64,000 nucleotides of DNA from a virus. The stretch spans positions 32,001-96,000 of the IMG/VR virus record IMGVR_UViG_3300017774_005745; one strand, given 5' to 3'. Below are positions 27,792 to 57,897 of the stretch, one piece after another. A program made the position numbers and the translations under genes. How positions within the stretch are numbered: position 1 is the first letter of the stretch; each line of letters opens with the position of its first letter. The notes beneath the pieces were generated by a model. The model did not search any database, was not told the origin of the DNA, and worked only from the letters and a program-made list of their open reading frames with translations.

Positions 27792-29630
27792 ATGCGTACA
27801 GCTGGCGTTATTTTCGACTTCTACGACGATGTTTCGGGTTCCCTCCTCAAGAAAGCGTGCCCAACTGCGGCAGACCTTCCTGAGATTGTGAAAGAAGCCC
27901 ATATCCTCAGCCCAGAGGAGCACGAGGTTCTTCGTGACGAGGCATACGCTCTCACGATGGTGAACAACGGAACGCCTCTTCGGAAGTTCGCCTGCGTTGA
28001 CGCCGGGAACACTGCCCTCTCTGTTCTCTACTTCTCCGACACGGCCGACCTTCTGCCTCACGCCGCAGTGAAGGTAGCTGCCGCAAACCTTGTCGAAGCG
28101 TGCGAAGACTTCGAGCTTCCAGTTCCAGGTTGGCTCAAGACCGCAGCGAAGACGGGAATGTCAAAGACCCGCAATCCATCAAAGCAACCTCAGCAGAGCG
28201 ATGATGTTGAGTGGAGCCAGAGAACGAATCTCAACAGCGTCCAAGGCGGAGCGGACTCAGGTCGAGTCATCCCCACCGCCAGCCAGATGAAGACGGCACA
28301 AGACCATGCTTTTAGCCATATGGCTCGTGTGAAGGGCGCAAAGAAGAAAGACGTCAACCTCGACAGTTTCCACAAGCTGAATCCAGAGGCCAAGCCAAAA
28401 GAGAAGAAGGCTGTGTCGGGGGAGTGGATTCGCGACTTGACGAGGAGTGGAGCTCAGGCTGCTCACGCAGCAGGGAATGCAAGCAAAGTATCTAACTTTG
28501 CGGCCCGCAACTCTATGGCTGGTATGAAGCCAGCAGGAAAGGCGCTGACGTTTGCTCAAAATCAGAAACATCAAGTAGCGGCGAACGCGGCTAACAGTGT
28601 CTCCTCCAAGATGGCCTCAGCCGAGACAACCGAGAAGTTGGCTCTGAGTCCTGGTATGGTTAATTCTCTTGCTCAGTCAGGAGCGCGTAAGAACCCTCTC
28701 AAGGGATTCCAGTTCATGAATCGAATGAATGCCAAGTCAAACGCTCTCTACGACACCGCAAAGAAACTCCCACAAGGGACAGGGGCCCGATCAAAAGTAC
28801 TAGATAGGGCATACAATGCTCGTGAAGGGGCTCTTGGCGCAGAGACCGGGTACAAGGCAAACAGACCTTCCGCTGGCATGAAGAGTGACGCTCGGATAAA
28901 CGCAGAGGTTAAGTACAACCCACAGGGCAAGTACGCGTCCGTCGTAGACGTCTCAGAAGCACAAGAGCAGGTGCTCGTGAAGAGAGCATCGGCTGAGCTC
29001 ACTGCACTTGGTGGGAAGTACCCTCTCGATTCCATGGCTGATGTTCAGAAGGCCGCCGAGTACTTCGAAACGAACTACAAAGAGATGGAGCCAGTCGAGG
29101 CTCATATCTTTGCTGTGAAGACTGCGGCACGTGCTGAAGAGATTGGTGTTCCGACCTCTCACACTCTTCAGAGATACGGTTCCATCGAGTACGCCATTGA
29201 CGTCGATGCACATATGGCCAATCGACTGGCCGTCACGCCACTTGAGTACAGAGAAGTGTACCAAGAGCTTCGCGAGAAGCGCGCCTCAATCGAGCCAGAG
29301 ACATTCGCAAACCTCCTCGCAGAGGCAGACGAAATCTCAGGGCTTCGTTGGGTGTGGGGTGGTGATGTCGCTGACCCCTACTACGCAACCTTCGGTAAGC
29401 AGGCAAATGCGTGGTCCTGGACCGGACGCACTGGAGATTTTACTACCGAAGAAGAGTTGAAGTGGCTTGCAAAGAACGGTAGACCTCTCGTCCACAAGCA
29501 CTTCTCAAGTGAGTTCACGGATTCGTTCATCAAGGACCCGATTACTATCTTTGAGTCCATGCCGGACGACTCGAAGGTCATCCTCTCTCGTCTTGCAAGC
29601 GGTCGCTTTGATGCGATGAATGCGAACTAA
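27792..29630 (+). CDS. Putative head/internal protein with K-x-A-delimited modules
   Basis: 612 aa, AAGGAG RBS; KVAA, KTAA, KTAQ, KKAV, KMAS, KLAL, KYAS and KRAS motifs bracket basic low-complexity inserts. Confidence 0.55.
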   Translation: MRTAGVIFDFYDDVSGSLLKKACPTAADLPEIVKEAHILSPEEHEVLRDEAYALTMVNNGTPLRKFACVDAGNTALSVLYFSDTADLLPHAAVKVAAANLVEACEDFELPVPGWLKTAAKTGMSKTRNPSKQPQQSDDVEWSQRTNLNSVQGGADSGRVIPTASQMKTAQDHAFSHMARVKGAKKKDVNLDSFHKLNPEAKPKEKKAVSGEWIRDLTRSGAQAAHAAGNASKVSNFAARNSMAGMKPAGKALTFAQNQKHQVAANAANSVSSKMASAETTEKLALSPGMVNSLAQSGARKNPLKGFQFMNRMNAKSNALYDTAKKLPQGTGARSKVLDRAYNAREGALGAETGYKANRPSAGMKSDARINAEVKYNPQGKYASVVDVSEAQEQVLVKRASAELTALGGKYPLDSMADVQKAAEYFETNYKEMEPVEAHIFAVKTAARAEEIGVPTSHTLQRYGSIEYAIDVDAHMANRLAVTPLEYREVYQELREKRASIEPETFANLLAEADEISGLRWVWGGDVADPYYATFGKQANAWSWTGRTGDFTTEEELKWLAKNGRPLVHKHFSSEFTDSFIKDPITIFESMPDDSKVILSRLASGRFDAMNAN

Positions 29631-29639
29631 GGAACGACA

Positions 29640-30170
29640 ATGACAACTAGAATCCACGTTGGTTCTTTCTTCGACGAGCTTGAGAAGATCTCCTCCGCAG
29701 GCCTGGAACTCGCAGGTCTTGGTGTTCTGGCCGCCCCGAGCGTTAAGACACTGATGGATCCTTCGGCAAAGAAGAAGGAGAAGAGCCACGCGAAGTTTGA
29801 AACTGCAGGACTCGGTCTTCTTGCAGCCCACCCTGCGTACGAGATTGGAAAGAAGCTGCTGACTAAGAAGGCAGCTACCGTCTCAAACCCAGCGATGATG
29901 CGTAATCACATGCTGGTCGATTCACAGAAAGCTGCCATCAAGGCACCTGCACAGGCCGCCCCAGCGTTGATGAAGAAAGACCCATCTCATTACTCAGACT
30001 TCACCCCTTCTGCATCTGTGGGACATCAGCCGGTCCAGAAGGCAGCTCCCGCCCCGATGAAGAGCACAAGGGCACTTCCTTCTGCTGGTCCTGTCATGAG
30101 CGCAGCACGCCCCGCAGCCAAGGCTACTGGCGTGATGGCTCGAATCGCTAACACGTTCCGGAAGGCGTAA
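29640..30170 (+). CDS. Basic Ala/Lys-rich putative internal virion protein
   Basis: N-terminal FFDELEKISS motif; AAGGA RBS. Confidence 0.5.
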   Translation: MTTRIHVGSFFDELEKISSAGLELAGLGVLAAPSVKTLMDPSAKKKEKSHAKFETAGLGLLAAHPAYEIGKKLLTKKAATVSNPAMMRNHMLVDSQKAAIKAPAQAAPALMKKDPSHYSDFTPSASVGHQPVQKAAPAPMKSTRALPSAGPVMSAARPAAKATGVMARIANTFRKA

Positions 30171-31105
30171 TGAAGAGTCCAGAACTAGAACTGTACGAGC
30201 GTCTTCGGGGTGCTGAGGCTAAGAAGCCAACGGCACCTTCGGAGGGGTCTGCCATGGAGAAGGAACTCAGGAAAGAGAATCCAGACGTCTCGACTCCACT
30301 TACAGTTCGAAACATCTTCACTCACTTCGATACGCATCCAGTAGTCCTGGACCTGGCACTCCTCAAGGCGTTTGGGGTTGATTGGTTCTCTTGGGATTCT
30401 TCTACACTGTACCAAGAGATTCAGCGTGTGTTCTTGTCTCAAATCTCAGAACACGCACGTGCGAAGATTCAAGCAATCAAGACTCTCCACGTCTCAGATA
30501 AGCCGTGGACGAGTTGGCAGGTCTTCGAGAAGGTCATTCAAGCTCTGAATAGCAGCATCCCTCGCTGGGAGTTCATGCAGGCTCCCTCGCTGGACCAGCT
30601 CTTTGCAGGGATTGATATCATGACCTCTATTCGTCCGGAGATTTTCGACGACGAAGTGAAGGCGTATATCGCAGCCGCTGTGTTGAACGAGGATGTCTTC
30701 TTCGTTCCCCCGCCCCTGGATTTTGCTCAGGTAGAAGTAAGTCACCCGAGGTACGTGTGTCTAGATTGTGGGAGCGAGGACTCTGCTCTCTTTCATGACG
30801 GAATCTGCGACACATGCTCCCAACGCTTTGACCCAGAGAACGGCTTCTCTTTCCAACCAGACCCAGACCTCATCCGAGACGGCAAAGGAAAGAACGTCAA
30901 GCTGGTTCTTCAGTTCGACCCGGACCCTATTGAGACTCGTTGGAATGAAGTAAAGGATACTCCAACGAAAGATGTAGACCTCCAAGAGACCCAGGTAGAC
31001 GTTCAAGTCGCAAAGCTTCTGCTCTCTCGCGACTACATGAACATCCGACGCAGACAACTCTCAGAGCAGCTTGTTGCTCTCAAGTCTTGGCTAGGGACCG
31101 TATGA
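30170..31105 (+). CDS. Hypothetical protein with zinc ribbon
   Basis: 311 aa; CLDCG...ICDTC; TAATG coupling. Confidence 0.75.
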   Translation: MKSPELELYERLRGAEAKKPTAPSEGSAMEKELRKENPDVSTPLTVRNIFTHFDTHPVVLDLALLKAFGVDWFSWDSSTLYQEIQRVFLSQISEHARAKIQAIKTLHVSDKPWTSWQVFEKVIQALNSSIPRWEFMQAPSLDQLFAGIDIMTSIRPEIFDDEVKAYIAAAVLNEDVFFVPPPLDFAQVEVSHPRYVCLDCGSEDSALFHDGICDTCSQRFDPENGFSFQPDPDLIRDGKGKNVKLVLQFDPDPIETRWNEVKDTPTKDVDLQETQVDVQVAKLLLSRDYMNIRRRQLSEQLVALKSWLGTV

Positions 31106-32085
31106 ACCTCATGACCGTTAGATCGCTCCTTGATGAGCTTGAGAAAATCGCCGTCTCTGAGGAGTGGATTCGACGCCATGCTAGGAGAGGATCCCTACTG
31201 AGACATTCACTCAGTCGCGATGAGCATGGCGCTAGACTCGAAGGAGATCCTTTTGGATCGTATTACAAGACTCTCAAAGGAAAAGAACGGCCCCCTTTTG
31301 CCGGTACGAAGAGTACGTTGAAGGATGACCCACGTACACGTAACAAGAGACAAGCTAAGATAGATGGTACGTGGGAAGGCTTTGATGACTACTCTAGAGG
31401 ACAGAGACTCAAAGAAGTAGGTGGAAAAGAATATAGTAAGCAGAAACCATCTAATAAATCACCACCTACTCAAACAAACTCATCACCGACATCTACTCAA
31501 AAACTTCCTTCTTTTGCTAAAAAACACTGGAAGAAGGGTGTTGCTGGTCTCGCTGCAACCGGCCTTGCTGCTGGTGCCTACGCTCTTCATAAGAAGAGAA
31601 AAAGTAATCGTGAGAAGACGGCAGAGTCCGAAGAGGGAGGTGCTGTGAACTACGTAAAGGGCATCGGAAAGAATCTCAAAGGGGCAGCTAAGGACCTAAC
31701 GCATCCAATCTCAAGGGCTCACCACGAGCTCAGGAGAATGGGACGAGACATCAACTCAGCGATTACTGGGAAGAAGGGTAATAGACAACTCACTCCCATG
31801 CAGAGAGCTGGTAAAATTGGGAACCACGGCCTAACTGCTGCATTTACCGTCCCGGCCGCCGCTGCCGCACTGAAGAAGGATCCCTCTGGACAAACATCCC
31901 GTGCAGAGCGAGTATCAAGATTCGTAGGCTCTACGATTGGAAACCTCGCCACCTCTCGAAGAGGTCTCTCGGGTTCGATTGCGGGAAGCATCGCCGGAGA
32001 CCAAGCAGGAAAGCTGGTCGGTAAGGGAATCAATAAGGTGACTGGTTTCAAGCCCAAGAAGACTGAACAAGAGGCAACTAAGTAA
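31102..32085 (+). CDS. Basic two-module putative internal virion protein
   Basis: LLDELEKIA N-terminal motif; internal EKTA; G/A-rich hydrophobic helices; ATGA overlap with the upstream gene gives start 31102. Confidence 0.55.
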   Translation: MNLMTVRSLLDELEKIAVSEEWIRRHARRGSLLRHSLSRDEHGARLEGDPFGSYYKTLKGKERPPFAGTKSTLKDDPRTRNKRQAKIDGTWEGFDDYSRGQRLKEVGGKEYSKQKPSNKSPPTQTNSSPTSTQKLPSFAKKHWKKGVAGLAATGLAAGAYALHKKRKSNREKTAESEEGGAVNYVKGIGKNLKGAAKDLTHPISRAHHELRRMGRDINSAITGKKGNRQLTPMQRAGKIGNHGLTAAFTVPAAAAALKKDPSGQTSRAERVSRFVGSTIGNLATSRRGLSGSIAGSIAGDQAGKLVGKGINKVTGFKPKKTEQEATK

Positions 32086-34163
32086 TGTCACTCATTGATG
32101 GCGTAAACGGAACCTCTCGATTCTCCGGTCAACGTGGGAGAACAGCCGACGGCTTGTCGAGGAGTGGTGTTCGTTACCCATCTCCCTTCTTCGACATCGG
32201 TCATACGTATCTCCCTCCGTCTCTGAAGGCACTCCTTCGGTGGTGCCGGTACTACTATCTCGTGAACCCGCTCATCAATGCGGTCATTCACAAGATGTCA
32301 GAGTACCCCATTACAGAGATTGTCATCGACGAGAAGGACCCAGCTATCAAGGATAAGTGGGACACTCTCCTCGGTGGTGTTCTTCGCTACAGACCATTTC
32401 AGATTGAGATCGGTCTGGACTACTACACTTACGGAATTTGCTTCGTAACGATTCACTTCCCGTTCGACAAGTTCCTCATTTGCCAATCCTGTAAGCACAA
32501 AGAGAAGGCTTCGAAGATTGCCTACAAGTGGAGAAACCTCGATTACGTTATCGAGTGTCCGAAGTGCAACACCGTCGGACCTGCCAAGGTTCAAGACTTC
32601 TACAAGCGAGACTTGAACGGTATCCGTCTGATGCGGTGGAATCCCGAGTACGTGAACGTCGACCCCGCGTTCGCTGGGGCAAAGCCTGTCTACACCTTCG
32701 AGCTCCCGCTTCAGGTACGAAACGATGTTCTTCTTGGAAAGAAGAGCGTCCTCGATACCATTCCAGACACCTTCATCGAGGCGATGAAGAGAGGGAAGTA
32801 CGTTCGGTTCTCGGACGACAACATCTTCGTCTTCAGAAGACCGATCATCAGCCAGAAGGACTCTGGATGGGGCATGCCGCTTATCATGCCTGTCCTGAAG
32901 GATACTTTCTATCTTCAGATTCTCAGGAAGGCGCAAGAGGCTATTGCACAGGAACACATCGTTCCAATGCGCGTTCTCTTCCCCCAGGGAAACAGCAGCA
33001 CATCTGACCCGTATACAACTATCTCCCTCGACTCATGGAAAGGAAGAATCGAAGGAGAAATCGCGAAGTGGAAGTACGACCCGAACTATATTCCAATTCT
33101 CCCTCTTCCAATCGGGAGTCAAACAATCGGCGGGGACGGTAGAGCGCTGATGCTTCACCAGGAAATGGAAGTCTGGTCGAGGCAAATCGTAGCTGGTATG
33201 GGGGTGCCCCAGGAGTTCGTCTTTGGTGGAATGCAGTACTCAGGAAGCAACGTCTCAATGAGAATGCTTGAGAACATGTTCCTCGGGTACAGAACAGACC
33301 ACGACCTGATGCTGAATCAGTTCACAATCAAGCGTATTGCTGCGTTCATGGGATGGCCTGCAGTGAAGGCCCATATGCGTCGCTTCAAGATGGCCGACGA
33401 CCTGCAACGTTCTGCCTTCTTCTTCCAGCTTAACCAGGGTCAGAAGATCTCTAACCAGACTCTTCTGCAAGAAGTTGATTTCGACCCAACTACGGAAGAT
33501 GCACGTATCAAGGGTGAACTCGATAGGCAGATTGAACTCAATCGCAAGATGCAGGTTGCACAAGCTTCTATTCAGGGCGAGATGCAGTTGGTCCAAGCCC
33601 GGTATCAGAAGCAGGCAACCGAACTGGTTTCTCAGGCTCTCCAAGGCGGAGCACCTGGGGCTCCCCAAGAAGCTGTCAATGCTCAAGCAGGTGCTGGAGT
33701 TGCGTCTGGTGCGCCTCCTGGTGCGCCGGAAGCACCCCAACCTGGAGAGCCACAAGCTCCTGGTCAGCCGGGGACCACAGGTCAAGAGGGCGAGATGCTC
33801 CAAGGACCTCAGGTCAATCCGGGAATGCCCGAAGGGTCTACGGTCTCAGCGGAGAACGCACAACAGGCACCCGCAGAAGGACTGCCCGCAGGAATTGCGA
33901 GCCCTCTCGATATGGGTACTCAGGGTGGAGGATTCAACCTTCTCTATCTCGCTCGAAGGGCAGCCACTACCCTTCAGAAGATGGACGAAGGCTCAAAGAT
34001 GTCTGAGATGAATAGAATGCAGATGACGAGTCCACAGCTCTATAGCTTGGTTCTTCAAATCATTCAGTCTGAGAAGGGTTCTCAAGAGAATCCATTGAGC
34101 GCCACTCAGAGTCCACAGCCGACTCTGAAACCATCGAGACGTCCATCCTCCACTGGTGTGTAA
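32085..34163 (+). CDS. Portal protein
   Basis: YYYLVNPLINAVIHKMSEYPIT, RWNPEYV, GWGMPLIMPVLKD, AGMGVPQEF portal-like blocks; P/Q/G-rich C-tail. Confidence 0.75.
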   Translation: MSLIDGVNGTSRFSGQRGRTADGLSRSGVRYPSPFFDIGHTYLPPSLKALLRWCRYYYLVNPLINAVIHKMSEYPITEIVIDEKDPAIKDKWDTLLGGVLRYRPFQIEIGLDYYTYGICFVTIHFPFDKFLICQSCKHKEKASKIAYKWRNLDYVIECPKCNTVGPAKVQDFYKRDLNGIRLMRWNPEYVNVDPAFAGAKPVYTFELPLQVRNDVLLGKKSVLDTIPDTFIEAMKRGKYVRFSDDNIFVFRRPIISQKDSGWGMPLIMPVLKDTFYLQILRKAQEAIAQEHIVPMRVLFPQGNSSTSDPYTTISLDSWKGRIEGEIAKWKYDPNYIPILPLPIGSQTIGGDGRALMLHQEMEVWSRQIVAGMGVPQEFVFGGMQYSGSNVSMRMLENMFLGYRTDHDLMLNQFTIKRIAAFMGWPAVKAHMRRFKMADDLQRSAFFFQLNQGQKISNQTLLQEVDFDPTTEDARIKGELDRQIELNRKMQVAQASIQGEMQLVQARYQKQATELVSQALQGGAPGAPQEAVNAQAGAGVASGAPPGAPEAPQPGEPQAPGQPGTTGQEGEMLQGPQVNPGMPEGSTVSAENAQQAPAEGLPAGIASPLDMGTQGGGFNLLYLARRAATTLQKMDEGSKMSEMNRMQMTSPQLYSLVLQIIQSEKGSQENPLSATQSPQPTLKPSRRPSSTGV

Positions 34164-34176
34164 GTAGGGAGCTTCA

Positions 34177-34767: not shown

Positions 34768-34772
34768 AGGCT

Positions 34773-34799
34773 AAAAAACGACTCAACCTACGAGTCGTT
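34773..34799 (-). terminator. Intrinsic terminator of antisense islet 1
   Basis: Stem AACGACTC/GAGTCGTT plus an A-run (U-tract on the minus strand). Confidence 0.7.
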
Positions 34800-35015
34800 C
34801 TCCTTTGGAAAGAAGATACAGAGCTTCTCCAATCTCCCATGAATCTCTCTGAAACGCTCCGAGAGCTCTGACATCTCTTGGACGAGTGCTTTCGGAGCAC
34901 CCTGCATCTGTATCTTCACGAACAGGTTGTACTGCGTTCTCCAGAGGGCAAGAGTGTCCTCCGTGAACCGCTCCATCTCCTCTTTGGAGATGGGCTCGCT
35001 TACATCAATCCCCAT
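34788..35015 (-). CDS. Small helical hypothetical protein
   Basis: MGIDVSEPISKEEMERF...; start chosen by overlap with the upstream stop. Confidence 0.6.
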   Translation of the reverse strand: MGIDVSEPISKEEMERFTEDTLALWRTQYNLFVKIQMQGAPKALVQEMSELSERFREIHGRLEKLCIFFPKENDS

Positions 35016-36244: not shown

Positions 36245-36247
36245 CTC

Positions 36248-36274: not shown

Positions 36275-36275
36275 G

Positions 36276-36394: not shown

Positions 36395-39300
36395 GTGGAT
36401 AACCTGACTCCAGAAGGTTCGTTCGACGTATTGAAGAACAATATCACCACTACCATCTCTTCTTTCTTTCCGTACGAAGGAAAAACGCGCCGTCTCCAGA
36501 TTGACAAAATCTGGGTGGACGACAAGCTCAATACCGAAGACATCCAGTCCCAAGCCCAGGCAAAGGACATGGATAGGACGTGGGGCGTTCCCGTTAAGGC
36601 GGACATCTCGCTCGTCGATAAGTTGACCGGCAAGGTCATTGATAAGAAGTCGATGACTGTTGCAAGACTTCCGAAGCTCACCAATCGATACGGATTCATT
36701 GTCGATGGAAATGAGTATCAGGTCGACCACCTGTTTCGTTTGAAGTCGGGAGTATACTCCCGCATCCAGGACAACGGTGACTTGGAGTCCGAGTTCAACC
36801 TTGTTCGTGGTCCTGCCGGTAACCGCTTCTCCATCAAGCTAGAAAGAGAGAAGAAGAGATTCTTCATCAAGAAGGGCGATGCACACATCCCTCTCTATCC
36901 CATCCTCAAGGCGATGGGAGTCTCAGATGATCAGATGGAGAAGGACTGGGGAAAGGAAATCTTTCTCGCGAATAAGCCCAAGACAGAAGACAAGACCCTC
37001 AAGTCGCTTCAGTCTTTCTTCAAGAAGACCTCCTTCGATGATGTCGTTGAGCCTACCGATGTAGCAGGCTACGGTAAGTACGTTCACGACTTCTTCGAGA
37101 AGACGGTTCTTCGCCCCGACACGACAAAGATTACTCTCGGTCGAGAGGCGTCTAAAGTAGACGGCCAGGTTCTTCAGATTGCTGCGAACAAGATTCTCGG
37201 TGTCTCTAGAGGAACGCATCAGCCAGACGACCGAGATAGCCTCGCCTTCAAGGAGATTGTCTCGGTCGAGGACTTCCTTCCTGAGAAGATTGAACGCGCT
37301 GCCAAGACCATCAAATCAAAGCTTCGCAACACGATTGACCTCAAGGACAAGCTGTCTGTGTCTGAGGTTGTATCAGCGGACCTCTTTGCCCGCCCCATCC
37401 GTGAGTTCTTCACAAAGGGCGGCTCACTGACAGAGCGACCGGACCAGACGAACCCAATCTCAATGATGTCCGGTCATCGTAAGACCACCCTCATGGCCTC
37501 GGACTTGGGCGGTATCAAGCGAGACCACTCACTCACCGATGAGATGCGTGTCGTGAATCCGAGCCACTTCGGCTTCCTCGACCCAATGCACACGCCTGAG
37601 TCTGAGCGTACTGGCATCACCCTGCATCTTGGCATGGCTGCTCGAAAGAATGGAAAGGAGCTGGAGACTCCTGTCTTCGACATCAAGAAGAACAGCATTC
37701 AGTACATGACGGCTCCCGCGTTCCACGAAGTGTCGGCGGTTCTTCCCGACCAGGTTCGTTGGGTCAAAGGAAAGCCAGTTCCAGTTGCTCCAACGGTCAA
37801 GGTCAAGCTCCCAGGCGGCTCCATTGAGCTCCGACCATTCTCTGAGGCTTCGTTCGTATTGCCCTCCTCCAAGGGCATGTTCGATATGGCCTCGAACCTG
37901 ATTCCCTTCCTTGCATCCAATCAAGGAAACCGCGTCTCGATGGCGGACAAGCAGATGGAGCAGGCTATCAGTTTGAAGTTCCGTGAGTCGCCTCTTGTGC
38001 AGTCTAAGACGGACCACGCTCAAGCTGGAATGACCTTCGAGAAAGTACTCGGAGGATTCAGTTCGCACAGAGCCTCTGTTTCAGGAACTATCAAGTCAAT
38101 CAAAGACGACCACATCGTCATCAACGACGGTAAGAAGAACCACCAAGTTCACCTCTACAATCACTTTCCCTTGAATGACCCGAAGGGAATGATGCACTCT
38201 GAGGCGGTGGTTGCTGTTGGAGACAAGGTCACTCAAGGACAGGTTATCGCCGACACCAACTTCACCAAGAAGGGTGTCTTGGCTCTTGGGTCCAACCTTC
38301 GAGTTGGTTACATCCCGTACAAGGGGTACAACTACGAAGACGGTATCGTCATCTCCGAGACGGCGTCTCAGAAGCTCAGCTCAGAGCACTTGCATAAGAA
38401 GTCGGTTGAGTTCGACCCAGAGAACGATGTGGTCTCGAAGCAGAAGTTCCTGTCGTTCGCCGCGACACGGGCCAATCAGCTTACGAAAGAGCAAATCAAT
38501 CTCCTCGACGATGATGGTATCGTTCGAGTTGGTTCGAAGGTCAGTCCTGGGCAGGTGCTGATTGCCGCCGTCGGAAAGAACCTCGCGTCGCGCCAGAGTG
38601 GGGCTCTTGCTGCCCTCGGCAAGAGAGCATTCCAGCCATACAAGGATAAGTCACTTGTATGGGATGAAGACCATCAGGGAGAGGTCGTCAAGGTAATCAA
38701 AGACCCGTCTGGAAAGAGTGCGAAGGTCTACGTCAAGACAGTCGAACCTCTCGTTATCGGCGACAAGCTCTCAGGACGGCACGGTAACAAGGGCATCGTG
38801 ACCATGATCCTTCCGGACCATGAGATGCCATTCACCAAGGACGAGAAGGGGGAGAAGAGACCTCTTGAGGTTCTTCTCAACCCTACTGGCGTTCCGACTC
38901 GAATCAACGTCGGACAGGTGCTTGAGACTGCCGCTGGGAAGATTGCGGAGAAGACGGGCAAGACATACATCGTCAATAACTTCGAAGGACCCATCTCGGA
39001 CAACACCCAGAAGGTCATTCAAGAGCTCAAGCAGCACGGTCTCTCAGACGAAGAGAACGTCTACGACCCAATGCACCCGAGTAAGGTCCTTGGTTCTGTT
39101 CTCGTCGGTCCTCAGCACCTTCTCAAGCTCAAGCACCAAGTAGAGAAGAAGCTCACCGTTCGAGGCGGCGGGACTGACCTCAATGGACGCCCTCTCACCT
39201 ACGACGTCGACAAGTCTCCTACGAAAGGTGGCGAACGAGGCGGTCAAGGAGTTGGAGCTCTCGACTTCTACTCTCTGTTGGCGCACAACGCTCGTCACAA

Positions 39301-42300
39301 CATTCGTGAGATGGCGACGTACAAGTCTGACATGCAGGATTCTACCTTCTGGAACATGATTCAAGAAGGGTATGAGCCGCCGCCACCGAAGGCTCCCTTT
39401 AGCTATCAGAAGTTCGTTGGTCTCTTGAACGGACTGGGCGTGAATGTCGATAAGAAGGGCTCTGTTCTTCAGCTCACTCCGCTCACCGATGCAAAGGTAA
39501 TGGAGATGGCAGGAGGAGCACGCGGTGAGCTCTCGAAGCCTCACCTCCTGCTTCGTGCAAAAGACTTGAGAGAAGAGAAGGGTGGCCTCTTCGACCCCAT
39601 CGCTACAGGCGGTCTCTCTGGCAACAAGTGGAGCTTCATCAAGCTCATCGAGCCAATCCCAAATCCCATCTTCGTTGGCTCAAACCACCGGCCTGGACCC
39701 GTTCCTTCCCTTCTTGGATTGAAGATGAAGGAGTTCGAGTCTGTGATGACGGGGGAGACGAAGCTCAATGGAAAGACGGGAGGGCATGCAGTCCTCGATG
39801 CTCTCAAGAAGGTGGATGTTCCTGGAGAGATGAAGTCTCTCCGAGAGAAGCTCCCGACACTTACTGGAGCTGACCTGGACAGAGCAAACAAGAAGCTGAA
39901 GTACCTCATGGCTCTCTCTGAGACAGGGCTGAGTCCCGACGTGGCGTACATGATGAAGGTGGTTCCGGTCCTTCCTCCTGCTTTCAGACCCGCGACCGTT
40001 ACCCACAAGGGAGACCTTCAAACTTCGTCACTCAACGGTCTCTACAAGAACATCGCAATCCTCAACAACAAGCTCACTGAGGTTGATCCGAGAACGTACT
40101 CAGAGACGCACAGAGCTCCGCTACGTTCTCAACTCTATGAGAGCGTGAAAGCGCTGCAGTCTATTGGCGGTTCTGTCGGTTACGACATGGATACTCCTGC
40201 GAGCTCCAAGAGAGCCCTGAAGGGTATCCTTGACATCATCGGAGGAGGAGAGGGAGAGCAGCCTAAGGATGCCTTCTTCCAATCCAGACTCATCAAGCGC
40301 CGTCAGAACCTTTCGATTCGTTCTACCATCGTTCCAGAGCCCAAGCTTGGAATTGACGAGGTCGGTCTCCCTCGTGGTGCGGCAATGGAGCTCTACAAGC
40401 CATTCGTTGTCGCCGAACTCTTCAAGACGGGCTTCCGGCCTCTTGATGCGCAGCTTGAGATGAAGAAGGGGTCGAAGGTCGCATTCGATGCTCTTGAGCG
40501 TGTGGTGAAGGACCGTCCTCTTCTTTTGAAGCGTGACCCCTCTCTCCACAAGTTCTCAGTCATGGCGTTCACCCCGAAGCTGATTGAGGGCAAGGCTATT
40601 CAAATCCACCCTCTCGTCACTGGCGGCTATAACGCAGACTTCGACGGGGATACCATGGCAGGGACTGTTCCTCTCACCAGAGAGGCAGTCGATGAAGCGA
40701 AGAAGATGTTCCCGTCTAAGAACCTCTTCTCGCCGACAACTGGCGCTGTCATGTACTCGCCAACTCAAGATTCAATGTTGGGACTCCACCTCATCTCTCG
40801 ATGGGGCACTAAGACGTCCAAGACCTTCGCGTCTCCAATCGAGCTCAACAAGGCCTTCGACAAGGGTGAGGTGACTCCGACAGACGTAGTGAAGGTCGGA
40901 GGGAAGGAAACGACTCTTGGTCGGCTTCTCTTGGAGTCGAGAATGCCGAGAGACTTCCACCTCAATAAGGACATTCTCCACAACCCTCTTTGGGTCATTG
41001 ATAAGAAGTCACTGACTTCTCAAATCATCACTCCGCTTGCAAAGAACCATACGAGAGACTTCGCCCATGTCGTTGACCAATTGAAGGACCTGGGTAACGA
41101 GTGGGCCTACAAGATGGGGTTCTCGTTCGGTCTGAAGGACCTTGCGACGATTCCGCAGCGTGGGAAGATTCTTGGAGATGCCAACAAGCTCGCCATCGAC
41201 ATCAAGAAGAATGTCAAAGACAAGGGAGAGCAAGACAAGCAACTCATCGAAGTCTACCAGAAGGCCACAGAGCAACTGGAGCACGCAGCCAGAATGCCTT
41301 CAGGTCAGAACAGACTGGCAGACATGGTTATCTCTGGGGCACGTGGTAAGCCTGAGCAGCTTCGCCAGATGATTGCGGCTCCCATGCTGGTCCAAGACTC
41401 CCATAACAACACCATACCGACCCCTATCCTTCGAAACTACGCAGAGGGATTGGATATTGGAGATTATTGGCTCGCACAGCACGGTGCTCGAAAGGGCACT
41501 TTGCAGCGCGTTCTTGGCACTTCTGAGCCTGGTGTTGTTTCGAAGGACATCATCAACTCCACTATCGCCACCATCATCGCCTCTCCTGACTGTAAGACGA
41601 CGCATGGGATGCTTATGGAGGTCGGTCACAAAGACATCAACGACCGCTACCTCTCAAAGAGCTACAAGCTCAAAGACGGACACGAGATCAAGGCAGGCAC
41701 CCTCATCACTCCGGAAGTTCTCAACCACTTCAAGAACTCAAAGATTGATAAGGTCTTGGTACGGTCTCCTCTTAAGTGCCAGCACGGAGAGGGAATCTGT
41801 GCGAAGTGCTTTGGTCTGAACGAGAGCGGCAAGCTCCACGAAGTCGGCATCAACATCGGAGTGCTTGCAGGGCAGGCACTCTCAGAGCCTGCTGTTCAGA
41901 TGGCGATGGATGCCTTCCATACGGGAGGTGTTGCATCCGGTAGAGGTGCAATGTCTGTGGACCGTCTGACTCGTCTCAGGAACGCGCTGAATCTTCCAGC
42001 AAAGCTCAAGAACTCTGCTACACTCTCAAGAGTCACTGGTAAGATTACAAACATCAAGAAGGACGCCGTCGGTGGTGTGGACCTCTTCATTGGAGACGAG
42101 AAGCACTTCGTTCCAAAGGACCTGGTCAATCACGACATCAAGGTGGGGGACGAGGTCAAGAAAGGACAGCAGGTCTCTCACGGATTCACGAACCCACACC
42201 ATCTTCTCCCACTCACTGACATGCACACTGTTCAGAACCACCTGACCAATGAGATGTATGGTGGGCTGTATGAGAAGGAAGGCGTTCGAAAGAGAAATGT

Positions 42301-42658
42301 CGAGGTCGTCGTACGTGCTCTCACGAATCTAACGAAGGTAAAGGACCCAGGGTCGAGCGACTTCATGCAGGGCGATATCGTTCCGACTTCTGTCGTTGAG
42401 GAGTTGAATAGAGGCCTGTCGAAGGATAAGAAGCACATCACACACGGGCCTATACTGAAGAGCATCTCTCAGATTCCGCTCACAGGAACGACCGACTGGA
42501 TGAGTCGCTTGAACTACAGAGAACTTCACAGCACTCTGCAACAGGCGGCGGCACAAGGATGGAAGTCAGATATCCACGGCAAGAATCCAATCCCAGGCGC
42601 TGCCTTCGGTGCTGAATTCGGGAAGCCTTCTGCAGGTAAGCCTAAGGGTCACTACTAA
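36395..42658 (+). CDS. rpoBC: Single-chain DNA-directed RNA polymerase, beta-beta' fusion (2087 aa)
   Basis: Beta motifs GDKLSGRHGNKG (38759-38794), NPTGVPTRINVGQ and KLKHQVEKK; beta' motifs PVLPPAFRP, RDPSLH, NADFDGD (40631-40651), HGARKG, CKT...CQHGEGICAKC zinc site and QMAMDAFHTGG trigger loop; no internal stop. Confidence 0.97.
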   Translation: MDNLTPEGSFDVLKNNITTTISSFFPYEGKTRRLQIDKIWVDDKLNTEDIQSQAQAKDMDRTWGVPVKADISLVDKLTGKVIDKKSMTVARLPKLTNRYGFIVDGNEYQVDHLFRLKSGVYSRIQDNGDLESEFNLVRGPAGNRFSIKLEREKKRFFIKKGDAHIPLYPILKAMGVSDDQMEKDWGKEIFLANKPKTEDKTLKSLQSFFKKTSFDDVVEPTDVAGYGKYVHDFFEKTVLRPDTTKITLGREASKVDGQVLQIAANKILGVSRGTHQPDDRDSLAFKEIVSVEDFLPEKIERAAKTIKSKLRNTIDLKDKLSVSEVVSADLFARPIREFFTKGGSLTERPDQTNPISMMSGHRKTTLMASDLGGIKRDHSLTDEMRVVNPSHFGFLDPMHTPESERTGITLHLGMAARKNGKELETPVFDIKKNSIQYMTAPAFHEVSAVLPDQVRWVKGKPVPVAPTVKVKLPGGSIELRPFSEASFVLPSSKGMFDMASNLIPFLASNQGNRVSMADKQMEQAISLKFRESPLVQSKTDHAQAGMTFEKVLGGFSSHRASVSGTIKSIKDDHIVINDGKKNHQVHLYNHFPLNDPKGMMHSEAVVAVGDKVTQGQVIADTNFTKKGVLALGSNLRVGYIPYKGYNYEDGIVISETASQKLSSEHLHKKSVEFDPENDVVSKQKFLSFAATRANQLTKEQINLLDDDGIVRVGSKVSPGQVLIAAVGKNLASRQSGALAALGKRAFQPYKDKSLVWDEDHQGEVVKVIKDPSGKSAKVYVKTVEPLVIGDKLSGRHGNKGIVTMILPDHEMPFTKDEKGEKRPLEVLLNPTGVPTRINVGQVLETAAGKIAEKTGKTYIVNNFEGPISDNTQKVIQELKQHGLSDEENVYDPMHPSKVLGSVLVGPQHLLKLKHQVEKKLTVRGGGTDLNGRPLTYDVDKSPTKGGERGGQGVGALDFYSLLAHNARHNIREMATYKSDMQDSTFWNMIQEGYEPPPPKAPFSYQKFVGLLNGLGVNVDKKGSVLQLTPLTDAKVMEMAGGARGELSKPHLLLRAKDLREEKGGLFDPIATGGLSGNKWSFIKLIEPIPNPIFVGSNHRPGPVPSLLGLKMKEFESVMTGETKLNGKTGGHAVLDALKKVDVPGEMKSLREKLPTLTGADLDRANKKLKYLMALSETGLSPDVAYMMKVVPVLPPAFRPATVTHKGDLQTSSLNGLYKNIAILNNKLTEVDPRTYSETHRAPLRSQLYESVKALQSIGGSVGYDMDTPASSKRALKGILDIIGGGEGEQPKDAFFQSRLIKRRQNLSIRSTIVPEPKLGIDEVGLPRGAAMELYKPFVVAELFKTGFRPLDAQLEMKKGSKVAFDALERVVKDRPLLLKRDPSLHKFSVMAFTPKLIEGKAIQIHPLVTGGYNADFDGDTMAGTVPLTREAVDEAKKMFPSKNLFSPTTGAVMYSPTQDSMLGLHLISRWGTKTSKTFASPIELNKAFDKGEVTPTDVVKVGGKETTLGRLLLESRMPRDFHLNKDILHNPLWVIDKKSLTSQIITPLAKNHTRDFAHVVDQLKDLGNEWAYKMGFSFGLKDLATIPQRGKILGDANKLAIDIKKNVKDKGEQDKQLIEVYQKATEQLEHAARMPSGQNRLADMVISGARGKPEQLRQMIAAPMLVQDSHNNTIPTPILRNYAEGLDIGDYWLAQHGARKGTLQRVLGTSEPGVVSKDIINSTIATIIASPDCKTTHGMLMEVGHKDINDRYLSKSYKLKDGHEIKAGTLITPEVLNHFKNSKIDKVLVRSPLKCQHGEGICAKCFGLNESGKLHEVGINIGVLAGQALSEPAVQMAMDAFHTGGVASGRGAMSVDRLTRLRNALNLPAKLKNSATLSRVTGKITNIKKDAVGGVDLFIGDEKHFVPKDLVNHDIKVGDEVKKGQQVSHGFTNPHHLLPLTDMHTVQNHLTNEMYGGLYEKEGVRKRNVEVVVRALTNLTKVKDPGSSDFMQGDIVPTSVVEELNRGLSKDKKHITHGPILKSISQIPLTGTTDWMSRLNYRELHSTLQQAAAQGWKSDIHGKNPIPGAAFGAEFGKPSAGKPKGHY

Positions 42659-43749: not shown

Positions 43750-43762
43750 TTCAAGGAGACCT

Positions 43763-46591
43763 ATGCGCCCGCTTTTCATTGATGAGACCTCTGAAGACTC
43801 GAAGACAAAGGAAGCGGGATTCACTCACCGTCTTTCTGAGACTCCTGATAACTGGGGTCAAGAGATTGGTAGCGAGCTTCATCGTCAGCTTCCGTTCTTG
43901 TCAGACTACGAGGTGAACGTCACCCTCGACAAGGTCGACCAAGGCCGGGGCTTTGCGTTTGGATACGCAGACATCTCGAATAGAACTGAGCGCCCAGAGG
44001 TTGAGCACGAGGAAGCGGGCATTCCCCACATCCGTGTTCCGCTCATTGCAGAAGAGCGTCAGGTTCGTCCGTTCTCCGTCTTTCTAGACGGTGAGAGAGT
44101 TCTTCCTCTCGGTGAAGAGAGAATTCGTGAGACTCTGTTCAACCCAGGAATGTTCGACCTCTCCACATCCGTGCCGAGAGACCCAAGTCTTGTCGAGCCT
44201 CTGATGCCTCCGCAGCGTTCTGGTATTGGTATGGGCGGCGAATACAAGATGGCCATGGCGTATCCAGAGCCCGCTTCTATTGCCACGAATCTCGATTACC
44301 GAGATGAGTGGCTCCGGAAGTTCGTTGGGACTGCTCTCTTCCAGAAGGCTATGGAGCTCCAGAAGCAGTTCCTGTCTCTTGACCAGGAAGACCTCTCACA
44401 GCGAGAGATGGAGCAGACGATTGAAGAGTCCTCTGGCCGTGCCTCACAGAGAATGGCCAAGAATCTCCAACGAGACGCTCTCCACTTGGAGAAGAGGAAC
44501 CTGGATGTAGAACTTCTCGCCGCTCAGGCAGGGGTTCCAACGTCTGAGGCTCCTTCTCCTCACGAGCAAGGACTCGATGCTTCGGCTCCAGAAGGTGCGA
44601 TGGAAGAGGCACCAGAGGAAGCTGCTCCTGCTCCCAAGGCTCCAAAGGAGAAGAAGGCCGGTATTCCGAAAGGCATGCAGGAACTTGCCAAGGGAAAGAA
44701 GTTCTTTCAGATGGATCCATACGTCCAGCGGAGAGTTGCTGCCAATAGTATGGGGAATGCGGCCAGGAAGCAGAAGAACCACGGCCACAAGATGCTCGAC
44801 ATCAAGGATGGACAGGTTCAGAAGAAGCGCGCAAAGGAGCTTCTTGAGAAGAATGCCTTCAAGCACATCTCGAAGGAGCAGTGGGAAGCCATCTACAAGA
44901 GCGACAAGATTCAGAAGATGATTCAGAAACACATGACCCACGACCACCCTGAGGTTATCAACGAGGTCTATTCGCTCGCAGCTAACCAATACGGATATCA
45001 CCCAAAGGTATACCCACCTTCTCCAGGTCAGCAGGCTCAGAAGGCACAGGCAGCTAACATGGGTGGGGCACCGAAGCCTGCGGCTGCCGCTCCAGCGGCC
45101 AAGCCAGCTACGAAGACGGCATCACTTCTTGAGGCAATTGCTCCGACGCTTCGTGAGACAGACAGAGACGCATTCGTTGAGAAGGTTGCAAACGACGCCA
45201 CCCTCCGTGCGGGCTTCCGTCGTTCTGGAATTGCCTCGGTTCTTGTCAACGTGATGGATACGAAGCTCGCATCCGCAAGGGACCGTATGTCTGCCCTTGC
45301 AGACGCAATCGAACCCTCCGTGGTTACCTTCCAGAAGCTCCCAGGTGGGGACTTCCTCGTCAAGTCAGCAAACGTTCAAGCGTTTGCTGGTGGCGAGCAG
45401 GCTCAGGGTCAAGTGGTTCCGTTCCAAGAAGTCGCCGAAGCAATCGGAACTGAGCCAGCGAGAGCGATGCAGCCAGGACAGATTGCAACTGCTGTGTCTG
45501 ACCCTGTTAAGGGCGACTCAGCAGACGAGTCTGAGTTCGACTCCATCTCTGAGTTTGGCCGCTACAAGGTCCAGGGAACCGACGGCAAGGAGCGGGAAGG
45601 CTGGGTATTCCCTCAAACGTTTGCTTGGGATGAGAACCTTACTCCACAGAAGACGGGTCTCTTCATCTCAGACAACGCGCACGCCATCCAGCAAGACTTC
45701 GCGGGCGCACGGGTTGCTGCAGAAGACATCAACCTTCCTACGGATATCCCCAAGGGTCTTGGAATCTTTCACTCGAAGAACGGAGACTCTGCCTCTGCTC
45801 CCATCGAAGTGAAGTTCGGTATGACTGGGTCTGACGGAGTTCCGAAGTACGTTGGTATTGATTCATTCGGAAACGAAGTCAAAGTCTCGGTTGTTCCTGG
45901 CCTCAAGACTCCTCAGAAGATTAGCGAAGGAGAGTATGCCCTCCCTCACGGTTGGGGATTCACTCGCCTTCCTTCGAAGGTCTCTCTTTCCGAGAAGTCG
46001 GATAGCATCGGCACTCAGTCGAAGTTGAAGAAAGAGAAGACATCTGCAGTTCTCTTCTACAACGGCGCATTCAACATCGTTGGTGGGTGTGGCCTCGATA
46101 AGGTGTCGGCTGACCTCCGCCACAGCATTGATGCGGTCGGTGCCGAGTTCATGCTGGGACTTCTCGGAGTTGATGGCGTTTCTGCCAAGCAGAAGGTTGC
46201 GGAAGCCCGTAAGATCGGGTCAGTGACCTTGACGGGACTCAAGACCATCGTTCCTCTCGCAGAGCGTTTCCAGGAGTCTATCAAAACTGCCTCGGCACTT
46301 CTGTCGAAGATTCCAAATCTCAAGAGAGACCTCATCAAGGAGGCCTCGATGATGGAGGACCAGGGAACCGTAGATAAGGTTCTTGCCCTGAACTTCGTCA
46401 ATCCTGAGAACCTCACCACGTTCATCGAGTATCTCCCTGAGCTTGAGAGATGCAGCGAGAACATGGCGGAGATGGTTCTTGCGGGCTACATGGGCATGAG
46501 AGAGATTCCTGTAGGTGCTGTAGAGCGTTCCATGAAGAACATGGAAGAGGTTGTCCAGAGCCTCAAAGCACTTCAGTATACTCAGGAGTAA
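43763..46591 (+). CDS. Large putative virion/head protein with K-x-A-delimited modules
   Basis: 942 aa, AAGGAG RBS; KEAG, KMAM, KKAG, KTAS (twice), KLAS and KEAS motifs separate compositionally distinct blocks. Confidence 0.5.
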   Translation: MRPLFIDETSEDSKTKEAGFTHRLSETPDNWGQEIGSELHRQLPFLSDYEVNVTLDKVDQGRGFAFGYADISNRTERPEVEHEEAGIPHIRVPLIAEERQVRPFSVFLDGERVLPLGEERIRETLFNPGMFDLSTSVPRDPSLVEPLMPPQRSGIGMGGEYKMAMAYPEPASIATNLDYRDEWLRKFVGTALFQKAMELQKQFLSLDQEDLSQREMEQTIEESSGRASQRMAKNLQRDALHLEKRNLDVELLAAQAGVPTSEAPSPHEQGLDASAPEGAMEEAPEEAAPAPKAPKEKKAGIPKGMQELAKGKKFFQMDPYVQRRVAANSMGNAARKQKNHGHKMLDIKDGQVQKKRAKELLEKNAFKHISKEQWEAIYKSDKIQKMIQKHMTHDHPEVINEVYSLAANQYGYHPKVYPPSPGQQAQKAQAANMGGAPKPAAAAPAAKPATKTASLLEAIAPTLRETDRDAFVEKVANDATLRAGFRRSGIASVLVNVMDTKLASARDRMSALADAIEPSVVTFQKLPGGDFLVKSANVQAFAGGEQAQGQVVPFQEVAEAIGTEPARAMQPGQIATAVSDPVKGDSADESEFDSISEFGRYKVQGTDGKEREGWVFPQTFAWDENLTPQKTGLFISDNAHAIQQDFAGARVAAEDINLPTDIPKGLGIFHSKNGDSASAPIEVKFGMTGSDGVPKYVGIDSFGNEVKVSVVPGLKTPQKISEGEYALPHGWGFTRLPSKVSLSEKSDSIGTQSKLKKEKTSAVLFYNGAFNIVGGCGLDKVSADLRHSIDAVGAEFMLGLLGVDGVSAKQKVAEARKIGSVTLTGLKTIVPLAERFQESIKTASALLSKIPNLKRDLIKEASMMEDQGTVDKVLALNFVNPENLTTFIEYLPELERCSENMAEMVLAGYMGMREIPVGAVERSMKNMEEVVQSLKALQYTQE

Positions 46592-46594
46592 CGA

Positions 46595-47443
46595 ATGAAA
46601 CACCCAGCTCATCACTTCATCAAGTACTTGATGGTGAAGGACCCCAAGACTGCCAACGCTGAGATTCTAAAGCGCTTGGAGGACTTTGGATTTCTATCTC
46701 CAGATGCGCCTTACCTGGAATTCATCAGACAAGAGCTCAAGGAAACTCCAGTAGGGTTCGACCCAGCAAATCGAATCCACCGTCCTTCGATGAGCTACCT
46801 TCGTCGTCATGGTATCTACGAGCTCTTCCATCCGTCTGACGCGATTCGAGAAGCATGGAAGATCCTCACCGACCCTTCTATTCGACTGAACGTTGAGCAG
46901 GCCTTGATGGCACGGTTGGATAGAAAAGCCATCGCTCTGAAGCTGAACAAGAAGAACGGCTGGCATCTCTCTGAGTCTGGGATGAAGGCGTTCCACGATA
47001 CCTTCTGGAACGTCGAGCTCCTCACTTGGGATGAGTGGGGCCGGTTCCTCTACGGCAGGTCAGGGATGTACGAGCGATACATGGCCATGCTCCAGGCGTC
47101 TCCTGAGCTCGCCATGTTCCATCTCCAGCTTCAACAGAACGTTGAGTCAAAGAACATGATTCAGCGCACGCAAGAGATTGCGTACTTCACCCTTGAGGAA
47201 GTCAATAGGAAGCCGGGCACAGGGCCAGACAAGGTGAAGGCCATCGGTGTACTTGGAAAGACCATCGTTGACTGTCACGATGCTCTCTCGACCTCTGATA
47301 TGGCGCTCAAGGACATCCTCAAGAACTTTGAGAGATTCCGCATGGACCATCCTCAGATTCCTCCTCCGGACATCAAGCAGCTCGCTCCAGGTGGGAGCTA
47401 CACTGGCAGTGGTGTTGAAGAGAAAGAAGTAAAAACCCACTGA
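46595..47443 (+). CDS. Hypothetical protein with HTH-like segment (terminase small subunit candidate)
   Basis: 282 aa; RKAIALKLNKKNGWHLSESGMKAFH helix-turn-helix-like stretch; upstream of terL. Weak inference. Confidence 0.3.
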   Translation: MKHPAHHFIKYLMVKDPKTANAEILKRLEDFGFLSPDAPYLEFIRQELKETPVGFDPANRIHRPSMSYLRRHGIYELFHPSDAIREAWKILTDPSIRLNVEQALMARLDRKAIALKLNKKNGWHLSESGMKAFHDTFWNVELLTWDEWGRFLYGRSGMYERYMAMLQASPELAMFHLQLQQNVESKNMIQRTQEIAYFTLEEVNRKPGTGPDKVKAIGVLGKTIVDCHDALSTSDMALKDILKNFERFRMDHPQIPPPDIKQLAPGGSYTGSGVEEKEVKTH

Positions 47444-47449
47444 GGTTGT

Positions 47450-48121
47450 ATGCCCTTCAAGTCCAAAGCTCAACAGCGATTTATGTTCGCAACCCACCCA
47501 CGCATGGCAAAGCGTTGGGCACACGAGACCAAAAACATGAAAAAGCTCCCAGAGAAGGTGAAGCAAGCGGGAATCCCAAAAGGGCTTAGAGCTATTGCGG
47601 AATCTGCTTTTGATACTGCCGGAGACCTCTCAAAGGCACAGCAGTACGCTGCTAGCAGAAATGCCGCGAACATCCACGGCAGAGGTCTAGGAATGGCCGC
47701 CCGCGATGGGTCTTTGATGAGTAAGTCGTATAATAAGAGACTTGCTAAGTCTGAAATTGAGCTTGCAAAGAAGCAGGTCGATTCTTCCTATCCAACTACA
47801 AGAGCAAGCAGACAACTCCAACACGGTATTGAAAATAGAAGAATGAGTAGAGACCTCCTATCTAAAAAGGCGGAGGCTGATAAAATCAAGGGCGGCCTCG
47901 CGGACCACCTGAAGTCCTCGGACTTCCCAAAGAAGAAACTGAAGGCAGGTCAGACGGTGGAGAAGGAACACACCAAGGACCCTGCAATCGCCAAAGAGAT
48001 TGCAAAGGACCATCTTACCGAAGATGGGAACTACTACGAGAAGTTGAAGAAGATGGAGAAGTCTGCCTTTGAGAAGATGTCTGCCAAACTGAAGAAGAAG
48101 ACGTCTGGGAAGTACTGCTAG
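47450..48121 (+). CDS. Three-module basic protein with C-terminal DUF5661-like domain
   Basis: MPFKSKAQQRFMFATHP N-module; KQAG-...-KKAE middle module; GQTVEKEHT...AKEIAKDHLTEDGNYYEKLKKME pattern (DUF5661-like). Confidence 0.65.
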   Translation: MPFKSKAQQRFMFATHPRMAKRWAHETKNMKKLPEKVKQAGIPKGLRAIAESAFDTAGDLSKAQQYAASRNAANIHGRGLGMAARDGSLMSKSYNKRLAKSEIELAKKQVDSSYPTTRASRQLQHGIENRRMSRDLLSKKAEADKIKGGLADHLKSSDFPKKKLKAGQTVEKEHTKDPAIAKEIAKDHLTEDGNYYEKLKKMEKSAFEKMSAKLKKKTSGKYC

Positions 48122-48130
48122 GAGTTCAAA

Positions 48131-57892: not shown

Positions 57893-57897
57893 TTTCT

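Follow-up and report, generated by a model that had tools for sequence, protein, structure and literature searches.

Cassettes bounded by K-x-[A/S] motifs, probable prohead protease sites, in the head genes of an uncultivated phage family

Carrier genes of the head block

The DNA analysed here, a window of 64,000 nucleotides (nt) corresponding to bases 32001–96000 of the 196,807-bp virus record IMGVR_UViG_3300017774_005745, comes from a complete phage genome of 196.8 kb and contains its head-gene block, and several genes of this block carry short segments, or cassettes, that are bounded by the motif K-x-A and have been exchanged between genes and between phages. The record bears direct terminal repeats. 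The phage belongs to a large uncultivated family, with 287 matches to its capsid gene in IMG/VR, and the nearest cultured phages, Salmonella phage Arash and three Vibrio phages, show 28% capsid identity. The block starts at position 27792 of the window (to which positions refer unless stated otherwise) and lies on the + strand, as do all genes and cassettes given with coordinates below. It runs from gene A (612 amino acids, aa) through a 176-aa gene, a 311-aa gene, gene B (332 aa), the portal gene, a fused beta-beta' RNA polymerase (2087 aa), a baseplate-like gene, gene C (942 aa), a 282-aa gene, gene D (223 aa, with a DUF5661 domain) and the large terminase to several small genes, a 526-aa protease candidate, scaffold-like genes and the capsid protein. 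Among the relatives used for comparison, R1 is the IMG/VR contig 3300020577_005688, merged from loci L002, L102 and L031; L119 carries P0122, an orthologue of gene C, L023 carries P0125, an orthologue of a 138-aa gene of the window (54293–54709), and L124 is Arash (OQ632216, 142729–151607). A search for related loci with gene A alone returned none, and one with the 282-aa gene returned only two.

Gene C (43763–46591) has an N-domain (residues 1–164) that ends in K-M-A and a C-domain that starts at residue 454, after K-T-A, with three cassettes between them. These are a coiled-coil-like acidic cassette, WLxKF (residues 165–299; 44255–44659); a basic cassette starting with GIPKG, of the C-type (residues 300–365; 44660–44857; charge +10, isoelectric point (pI) 10.3), between E-K-K-A and E-K-N-A codons; and FKHIS (residues 366–453; 44858–45121), which starts directly after K-x-[A/S/G]. 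Among 69 orthologues the variable region, between the K-[M/Q]-A of the N-domain and the K-x-[A/S] that the C-domain follows, ranges from 0 to 304 aa and holds recognisable cassettes in varying number and order. Thus WLxKF precedes FKHIS here, while the order is reversed in P0156, P0160, P0162 and P0164; WLxKF is duplicated in P0147 and is part of separate genes in the relatives G004 and G005.

Gene A (27792–29630) is built similarly, as judged from an orthologue alignment and from breakpoints against R1: an acidic, conserved N-domain (residues 1–169) ends in K-T-A, an equally acidic and conserved C-domain starts at residue 383 after K-Y-A, and the middle is hypervariable in a 15-sequence alignment. 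One basic cassette, of the VSxEW type (residues 208–275; 28413–28616; pI 11.1), follows E-K-K-A (28401–28412) and ends in K-M-A; no further homologue of its body was found, and a GLPRG cassette occupies its slot in R1. The second (residues 285–382; 28644–28937; pI 10.3) starts with LSP after E-K-L-A, ends in K-Y-A and is missing from R1. Downstream, the 176-aa gene (29640–30170) opens with an N-terminal tag ending in E-K-I-S, and gene B (31087–32085) with a tag (residues 1–22) ending in E-K-I-A. In gene B, VSxEW starts at 31153, after the tag, and a basic, variable middle leads to a Gly-rich C-terminal domain; across five genomes the tag and this domain are kept and divergence begins directly past K-I-A. 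A small separate gene in another locus (L007) begins with a tag like that of gene B plus VSxEW. VSxEW is common to gene A, gene B and this small gene over only 13–23 residues, and a profile search with it gave no copies beyond those known before. The 176-aa and 138-aa genes also share an Ala/Pro-rich stretch followed by G-V-M-x-R-I-A-x-x-F (30100–30167 and 54530–54570; BLASTP E 0.026); the protein P0246 has the same motif at its C-terminal end. This region may be another shared module, on the C-terminal side.

Gene D (47450–48121) consists of an N module (residues 1–40) ending in K-Q-A, a D-type GIPKG cassette (47570–47872) ending in K-K-A, a DUF5661 cassette (47873–48067) ending in K-S-A, and a short tail. 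The DUF5661 assignment (PF18905, residues 161–204) has E 4.2e-10 in Pfam, its 40.3 bits exceeding the gathering cut-off of 27. The slot of gene D (47443 to 48131, and its counterparts in relatives) is hypervariable: L119 has nothing there, G001 and G003 have a tagged protein of 240–299 aa, L121 has a LigD_N/DNA-ligase/DUF5661 protein, and G002 has a 372-aa SKAQ-type protein together with a 476-aa gene, the likeness of which to LigD was judged by eye only. An extra gene with a DnaJ motif precedes the 282-aa gene in R1 and G002.

Similarity, exchange and lateral transfer of cassettes

A preliminary description, made from the letters of the window, had proposed that unrelated genes share module starts immediately after K-x-A, and that such modules are duplicated and shuffled among carrier genes with the motif-coding DNA as a junction, as in a polymorphic cargo library. 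The seven K-x-A sites that it quoted, and the residues after them, are all present: K205 of gene A at 28404 and K20 of gene B at 31144, K297 of gene C at 44651 and K38 of gene D at 47561, and further sites at 28635, 58016 and 61531. In an anchored test, the 13 residues following each of 101 K-x-A sites in 27 proteins were compared in register, ungapped, with BLOSUM62, against 2000 controls that used random positions in the same proteins. The GIPKG pair (genes C and D) and the VSxEW pair (genes A and B) each scored 36, whereas the best control pair averaged 23.0 and the second-best reached 36 or more in 0 of 2000. Two of the three similarities are therefore above chance, that of VSxEW only as a homology some 13–23 residues long. 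The third, between the LSP, MSP and ISD starts, gave scores of 5, 0 and −3, well within the null, and the MSP start is not preserved in orthologues of its gene, relatives having MAA and MSF; this trio is chance plus a preference for Ser near the site, nothing more. Plain BLASTP within the window gave no significance to the GIPKG and VSxEW pairs (E 0.16 and 1.0), and an all-against-all comparison yielded no significant cross-gene match (best E 0.026–0.16). The evidence inside the window is thus positional only, and relatives were needed.

GIPKG is the start of a basic cassette of 60–100 aa. Once relatives were used, a four-sequence profile of it recovered seven proteins at E 1e-14 to 1e-23 among 5.8 billion, and an exhaustive search added others. 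An exhaustive search of the representative set gave only five proteins because most carriers are represented there by cassette-less cluster members. The cassette follows the motif directly in every case and occurs in at least six carrier contexts. It is present in gene C, as the C-type in this genome, P0122 and P0124 and as the D-type in P0126 and P0127; in gene D of this genome and P0123; in gene A of R1; in the 138-aa orthologue P0125, where it stands after R-K-T-A in place of another segment of the gene found here; in P0243, an orthologue of the 176-aa gene with a D-type copy; in P0246; and in stand-alone proteins of 92–94 aa made up of a tag plus the cassette and nothing else. Three phages whose capsid proteins are 96% identical to that of this phage have the GIPKG cassette in different genes. 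D-type cassettes can be aligned over about 100 residues, ending at another K-K-[A/S].

Other cassettes behave in the same way. The first conserved residue lies directly after K-x-[A/S/G] in 71/71 sequences for FKHIS, 5/5 for GIPKG and 7/7 for the AMVQT cassette, and in 61/81 for the C-domain. The DUF5661 cassette, found in gene D here, belongs to gene C or to the protease gene in relatives, with K-x-[A/S] sites on either side in all cases; by Pfam match only, it also occurs in the ligase gene of L121. The GIPKG, VSxEW and LSP-start cassettes have a pI of 10–11, and the carrier domains one of about 5. The idea that all cassettes form one family was dropped, as a 12-cassette GIPKG profile misses both the VSxEW cassette of gene A and a 133-aa gene (61453–61854); in the latter, homology to R1 ends at the second E-K-x-A (61528–61539), beyond which the basic tail is unrelated.

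The comparison of orthologous carriers showed that they are not colinear, and that insertions, deletions and replacements of cassettes end at K-x-A codons. At seven junctions, the DNA identity between close relatives is interrupted no more than two codons away from those for K-x-A. R1 lacks exactly the 66 codons of the C-type GIPKG cassette of gene C, which is also absent from P0128 and P0129; in this genome the cassette is flanked by 12-nt direct repeats (11 of 12 positions identical) that encode E-K-[K/N]-A, and R1 has one copy of the repeat. For gene A, DNA identity with R1 is high through the K-T-A codons and lost at the next one, and it is lost again within the codons for P-K-E-K-K-A, returning at V-K-R-A. 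For gene D, identity with the locus L103 stops at the Ala codon of K-[Q/K]-A and returns two codons past K-K-A, the D-type cassette being replaced in both R1 and L103 by an unrelated segment of about 45 aa. The proposed duplication and shuffling of cassettes among carrier genes is borne out by the occurrence of one cassette type in different carriers and phages.

The C-type cassette has also been transferred laterally. Against the orthologue in L119, 188 of 204 nt are identical (92%) over 68 codons including the left motif, and 54 of the 64 codons for the same residue are identical, whereas DNA identity is only 69% in the N-domain, 58% in the C-domain, 62% in the 282-aa gene and 69% in the terminase. 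The tract of high identity begins at the left motif codons and ends within the right ones, and both neighbours of the cassette differ. An assembly error is unlikely, because P0122 is present on three contigs and the cassette-less form of gene C occurs in R1, P0128 and P0129.

The motif and a candidate prohead protease

The motif that is enriched and conserved is [E/Q]-K-x-[A/S], and its usual form at joints is E-K-x-A. In the head block E-K-x-[A/S] is found 38 times against 9.8 expected from shuffled proteins, an approximately four-fold enrichment, while in the other 200 genes 27 occurrences compare with 27.7 expected; the enrichment is thus confined to the head block. Within the block, no E-K-x-A occurs in the 2087-aa RNA polymerase or in the terminase, and the sites are densest in scaffold-like proteins of 300, 355 and 120 aa (56990–59678, a 105-aa tagged gene being among these), with 5, 5 and 4 occurrences against 1.0, 1.3 and 0.3 expected. 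The major capsid protein (60237–61361; phrog_2522) has K-I-A at residues 25–27 (60309–60317), and K-[I/V/L]-A is preserved at this place across the family, as seen in an alignment of 65 distinct N-termini; a propeptide of 27 residues is accordingly predicted. Ser is 3.4-fold enriched directly after the site. An N-terminal tag of the form hydrophobic-x-x-F-x-[D/S]-E-L-x-K-I-A is common, at or near the N-terminus, to otherwise unrelated proteins, encoded in the window at 29640, 31087 and 57902 and outside it at genome positions 13563, 141651, 156365 and 157697. The head proteins gp220–gp225 of Arash and its capsid protein also hold many K-x-A sites, which are followed by Ser, Ala or Gly.

Codon usage was examined at the 43 [E/Q]-K-x-[A/S] sites of the head genes in the window. 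GAG accounts for 32 of the 35 Glu codons in the motif, as compared with 66% of those in the rest of these genes (p 0.002); for Ala, GCC makes up 41% as compared with 24%. The codons for x and Ala vary, however, the conservation being at the protein level.

The candidate prohead protease (526 aa; 55390–56970) matches phrog_18299, a head maturation protease, at E 8.7e-6, and with tblastn the annotated capsid maturation and prohead proteases of Gordonia and Rhodococcus phages at E 2e-9 to 1e-6. H109, H110 and S166 are invariant in its orthologues, and its K-x-A sites at residues 29–31 and 282–284 are preserved. The best fold matches of the predicted model (predicted local distance difference test, pLDDT, 59) are T4 gp21 and the varicella-zoster virus (VZV) protease, both weak: gp21 makes up the top three Foldseek matches, at E 0.36, and superimposes with Z 4.7 over 113 residues at a root-mean-square deviation of 3.7, while the VZV protease gives Z 4.6. 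No PDB sequence was matched by a profile of the protease family. Arash gp222 is 46% identical to the protease domain of this phage. Herpesvirus assemblin has sites with Ala at the end, followed by Ser or Thr, for example YLQA-T and VQA-S (PMC4498786). Since the enrichment is seen in the head block only, and the motif is conserved in the capsid N-terminus and in the protease candidate itself, K-x-[A/S] is probably the cleavage site of the prohead protease, a reading drawn from enrichment, conservation and protease homology.

Some further features of these genes concern insertions of another kind. The fused RNA polymerase (36395–42658) sits within the virion gene block. In R1 (L002, 14236–21642) it has a 359-aa intein-like insert directly after the catalytic NADFDGD motif; the first residue of the insert is Ser, His-Asn stand at its end and Thr comes next, and it is similar to an insert in the protease gene of G002. 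Orthologues P0003 and P0031 of the protease gene are 900–1674 aa long and have homing-endonuclease and intein Pfam domains, and the terminase genes of two relatives (G002:C1:107003-109837 and G005:C1:128972-131665) are split by an in-frame insert of about 340–370 aa. Inteins thus seem to be common in essential genes of this phage family.

A protease-site reading and its place among known systems

The explanation that we consider likely is that head proteins of this phage are strings of exchangeable cassettes jointed by protease sites, the motif being the site of the prohead protease; GIPKG and VSxEW are the N-terminal edges of such cassettes. Several head proteins would be polyprotein-like, with conserved acidic domains and short tags joined to small, mostly basic cassettes. 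Every joint would be a K-x-[A/S], and the serine protease encoded at 55390 would cut after Ala or Ser, as herpesvirus assemblin cuts after Ala. During prohead maturation it would cut off the tags, split the domains from one another and release the cassettes within the capsid. Each cassette, having its own flanking site, would be autonomous once cleaved, and its in-frame gain, loss or replacement would therefore be tolerated at any site; moves of cassettes between slots, carrier genes and phages, with ends at motif codons, are indeed observed. The term cargo, as used in the preliminary description, would fit cassettes freed in this way, and it is tempting to speculate that the basic peptides stay with the DNA or are injected.

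The role of the motif-coding DNA as a junction, also put forward in that description, fares less clearly. The direct repeat of 11 out of 12 nt, the ends of tracts within motif codons and the GAG bias suggest that it provides microhomology for recombination, yet selection for in-frame, cleavable joints predicts the same, and the two are inseparable. A bolder version of the explanation holds that the prohead-protease site is a universal splice joint, with GAGAAG-NNN-GCN as microhomology, and that any head protein, the protease included, can carry items of a mobile library of basic peptides, which are freed in the capsid and travel with the DNA as fast-evolving host effectors, for example against defences. 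We regard this extension as possible but doubtful.

Several observations weigh against the protease-site reading. With K and A frequent in these proteins, a single coincidence carries little weight; the VSxEW similarity covers few residues and may reflect a linear motif; the fold match of the protease candidate is weak and the PDB sequence search with its family empty. Some variable segments have no K-x-A ends, namely the internal one of gene B and those of the 176-aa gene and of the genes at 61871 and 62332, and the swap in the 138-aa gene is not bounded by the motif on the left, where the divergent DNA tract includes the leader. The accessible part of the Arash paper gives a virion proteome, in which the RNA polymerase is the most abundant protein; that part makes no mention of a protease or of cleavage, and the supplement lists proteins, with no peptide-level data (PMC10585845). 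As for the function of the cassettes, Pfam searches of six of them at E up to 5 gave nothing meaningful, genes A, B and C also had no Pfam match, and an ESM Atlas search with the D-type cassette gave generic helical matches only.

Other explanations account for part of the data. The residues after K-x-A might be the primed-side part of an extended recognition motif for a protease or for packaging, or linear motifs that arose independently. This would agree with the chance level of the LSP, MSP and ISD starts, the enrichment of Ser directly after the site, the fading of VSxEW similarity after 13–23 residues, the lack of other homologues of the gene A cassette bodies among the sequences compared, and the position of GIPKG, which is next to the motif in every case, as expected of a recognition element. 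For GIPKG, however, it is already refuted: the homology extends 60–100 residues past the site with E down to 1e-23, the D-type alignment covers about 100 residues up to another K-K-[A/S], and cassette DNA is 92% identical where the surroundings are 58–69% identical. As a general account it has a small probability. Far more improbable is that K-x-A marks a domain boundary beyond which unconstrained linkers diverge in place without movement of cassettes. A sharp drop of identity after K-x-A would be expected wherever a constrained domain ends, and several variable segments are of low complexity or rich in Pro and Ala; but the same cassette occurs in different genes and slots, the 66-codon indel is clean, and between two phages a cassette is more similar than the terminase, synonymous positions included.

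There is slightly more room for a view in which shuffling is real while K-x-A is not a protease site, being instead a neutral flexible joint or a DNA recombination signal (a word containing GAGAAG), with the carriers intact in the virion. The strong preference for GAG hints at a constraint at the DNA level, the protease assignment rests on remote similarity, and cleavage itself is inferred. This view is nevertheless unlikely, as the motif is conserved as protein while its codons for x and Ala vary, sits at known targets of prohead proteases (the capsid N-terminus, scaffold-like proteins and the protease itself), is kept in Arash at only 28% capsid identity and resembles assemblin sites.

With respect to known systems, the logic of the protease-site reading is closest, by analogy, to that of the T4 internal proteins with their capsid-targeting sequence, combined with cassette exchange in the style of polymorphic toxins. 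The internal proteins of T4 (IPI–III, Alt) have an N-terminal capsid-targeting sequence that is removed by the prohead protease gp21; the released proteins are small and basic, and the set of tagged proteins varies between relatives. Likewise, unrelated proteins here have a common short N-terminal tag ending at a putative protease site, the protease candidate may have a gp21/assemblin-like fold (a weak match), and the putatively released cassettes are small and basic. In contrast to T4, the motif is K-x-[A/S] in place of [L/I]-x-E; many cassettes are internal, bounded on both sides and placed between conserved structural domains, even in the protease gene; the same cassette moves between carriers; and no sequence homology to T4 internal proteins was seen. 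The phages phiKZ and SPN3US have propeptides and paralogous internal proteins, and their cleavage motif ends in Glu. Two reports indicate that a prohead protease similar to that of T4 processes many of their head and ejection proteins, with a single short motif as its target (PMC5694885, PMC10052503). Many head proteins of the present phage similarly have one short putative cleavage motif, but with Ala or Ser instead of Glu at the cut, and the phage family is unrelated, Arash having the nearest capsid protein. We know of no description, for phiKZ or SPN3US, of cassettes bounded on both sides that are exchanged between carriers or laterally transferred.

In polymorphic toxins such as CdiA (VENN) and Rhs, a conserved junction motif precedes exchangeable C-terminal cassettes that recombine and spread laterally, and the motif-coding DNA provides homology at the joint. 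A conserved junction motif with variable cassettes exchanged at the joint is found here too. The differences are that neither the cassettes nor the genes next to them matched a toxin or immunity family, that the context is one of head genes without a secretion system, that cassettes occur inside proteins as well as at their ends, each with a border on either side, and that the motif is probably a protease site inside a capsid. Polyvalent proteins of phages and conjugative elements are multi-modular, with mosaic and rapidly changing architectures; their genes lie among those for virion proteins, packaging and delivery along with the DNA are predicted for them, and peptidases process some of them (Iyer et al. 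2017, PMC5512222). One such polypeptide combines from two to fifteen recognisable domains with effector or enzymatic roles, in many cases including an autopeptidase of the MPTase type (PMC5512222). The modules described here are, by contrast, non-enzymatic segments of 20–130 aa with the putative protease motif between them, and in Pfam searches of genes A–D the hallmark domains were not detected, DUF5661 in gene D being the only match. Finally, assemblin, which cuts after Ala with Ser or Thr next (PMC4498786), resembles the present case in its site, in the fold class of the best, though weak, structural matches and in the invariant His-His and Ser. It differs in that here Lys stands two residues ahead of the putative cut, with Glu common before Lys, and in that there are tens of sites in many proteins as against two or three in one scaffold protein.

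What is new relative to these themes is the different motif, the internal cassettes bounded on both sides, and their location within essential structural and protease genes. If the motif is a cleavage site, it would represent a new specificity of prohead proteases, with Ala or Ser at the cut and Lys two residues before it, in a large and nearly unstudied family, and would allow the mature virion proteome of these phages to be predicted by a simple rule; Arash is a cultured system in which the motif could be examined. The arrangement may also offer a design principle for loading foreign peptides into capsids. Protease sites would then define the borders of modules both in evolution and in biochemistry, so that essential head proteins can gain or lose cassettes without harm, and the family would possess a defined set of laterally transferred peptides that could be tested for roles in DNA condensation or host takeover.

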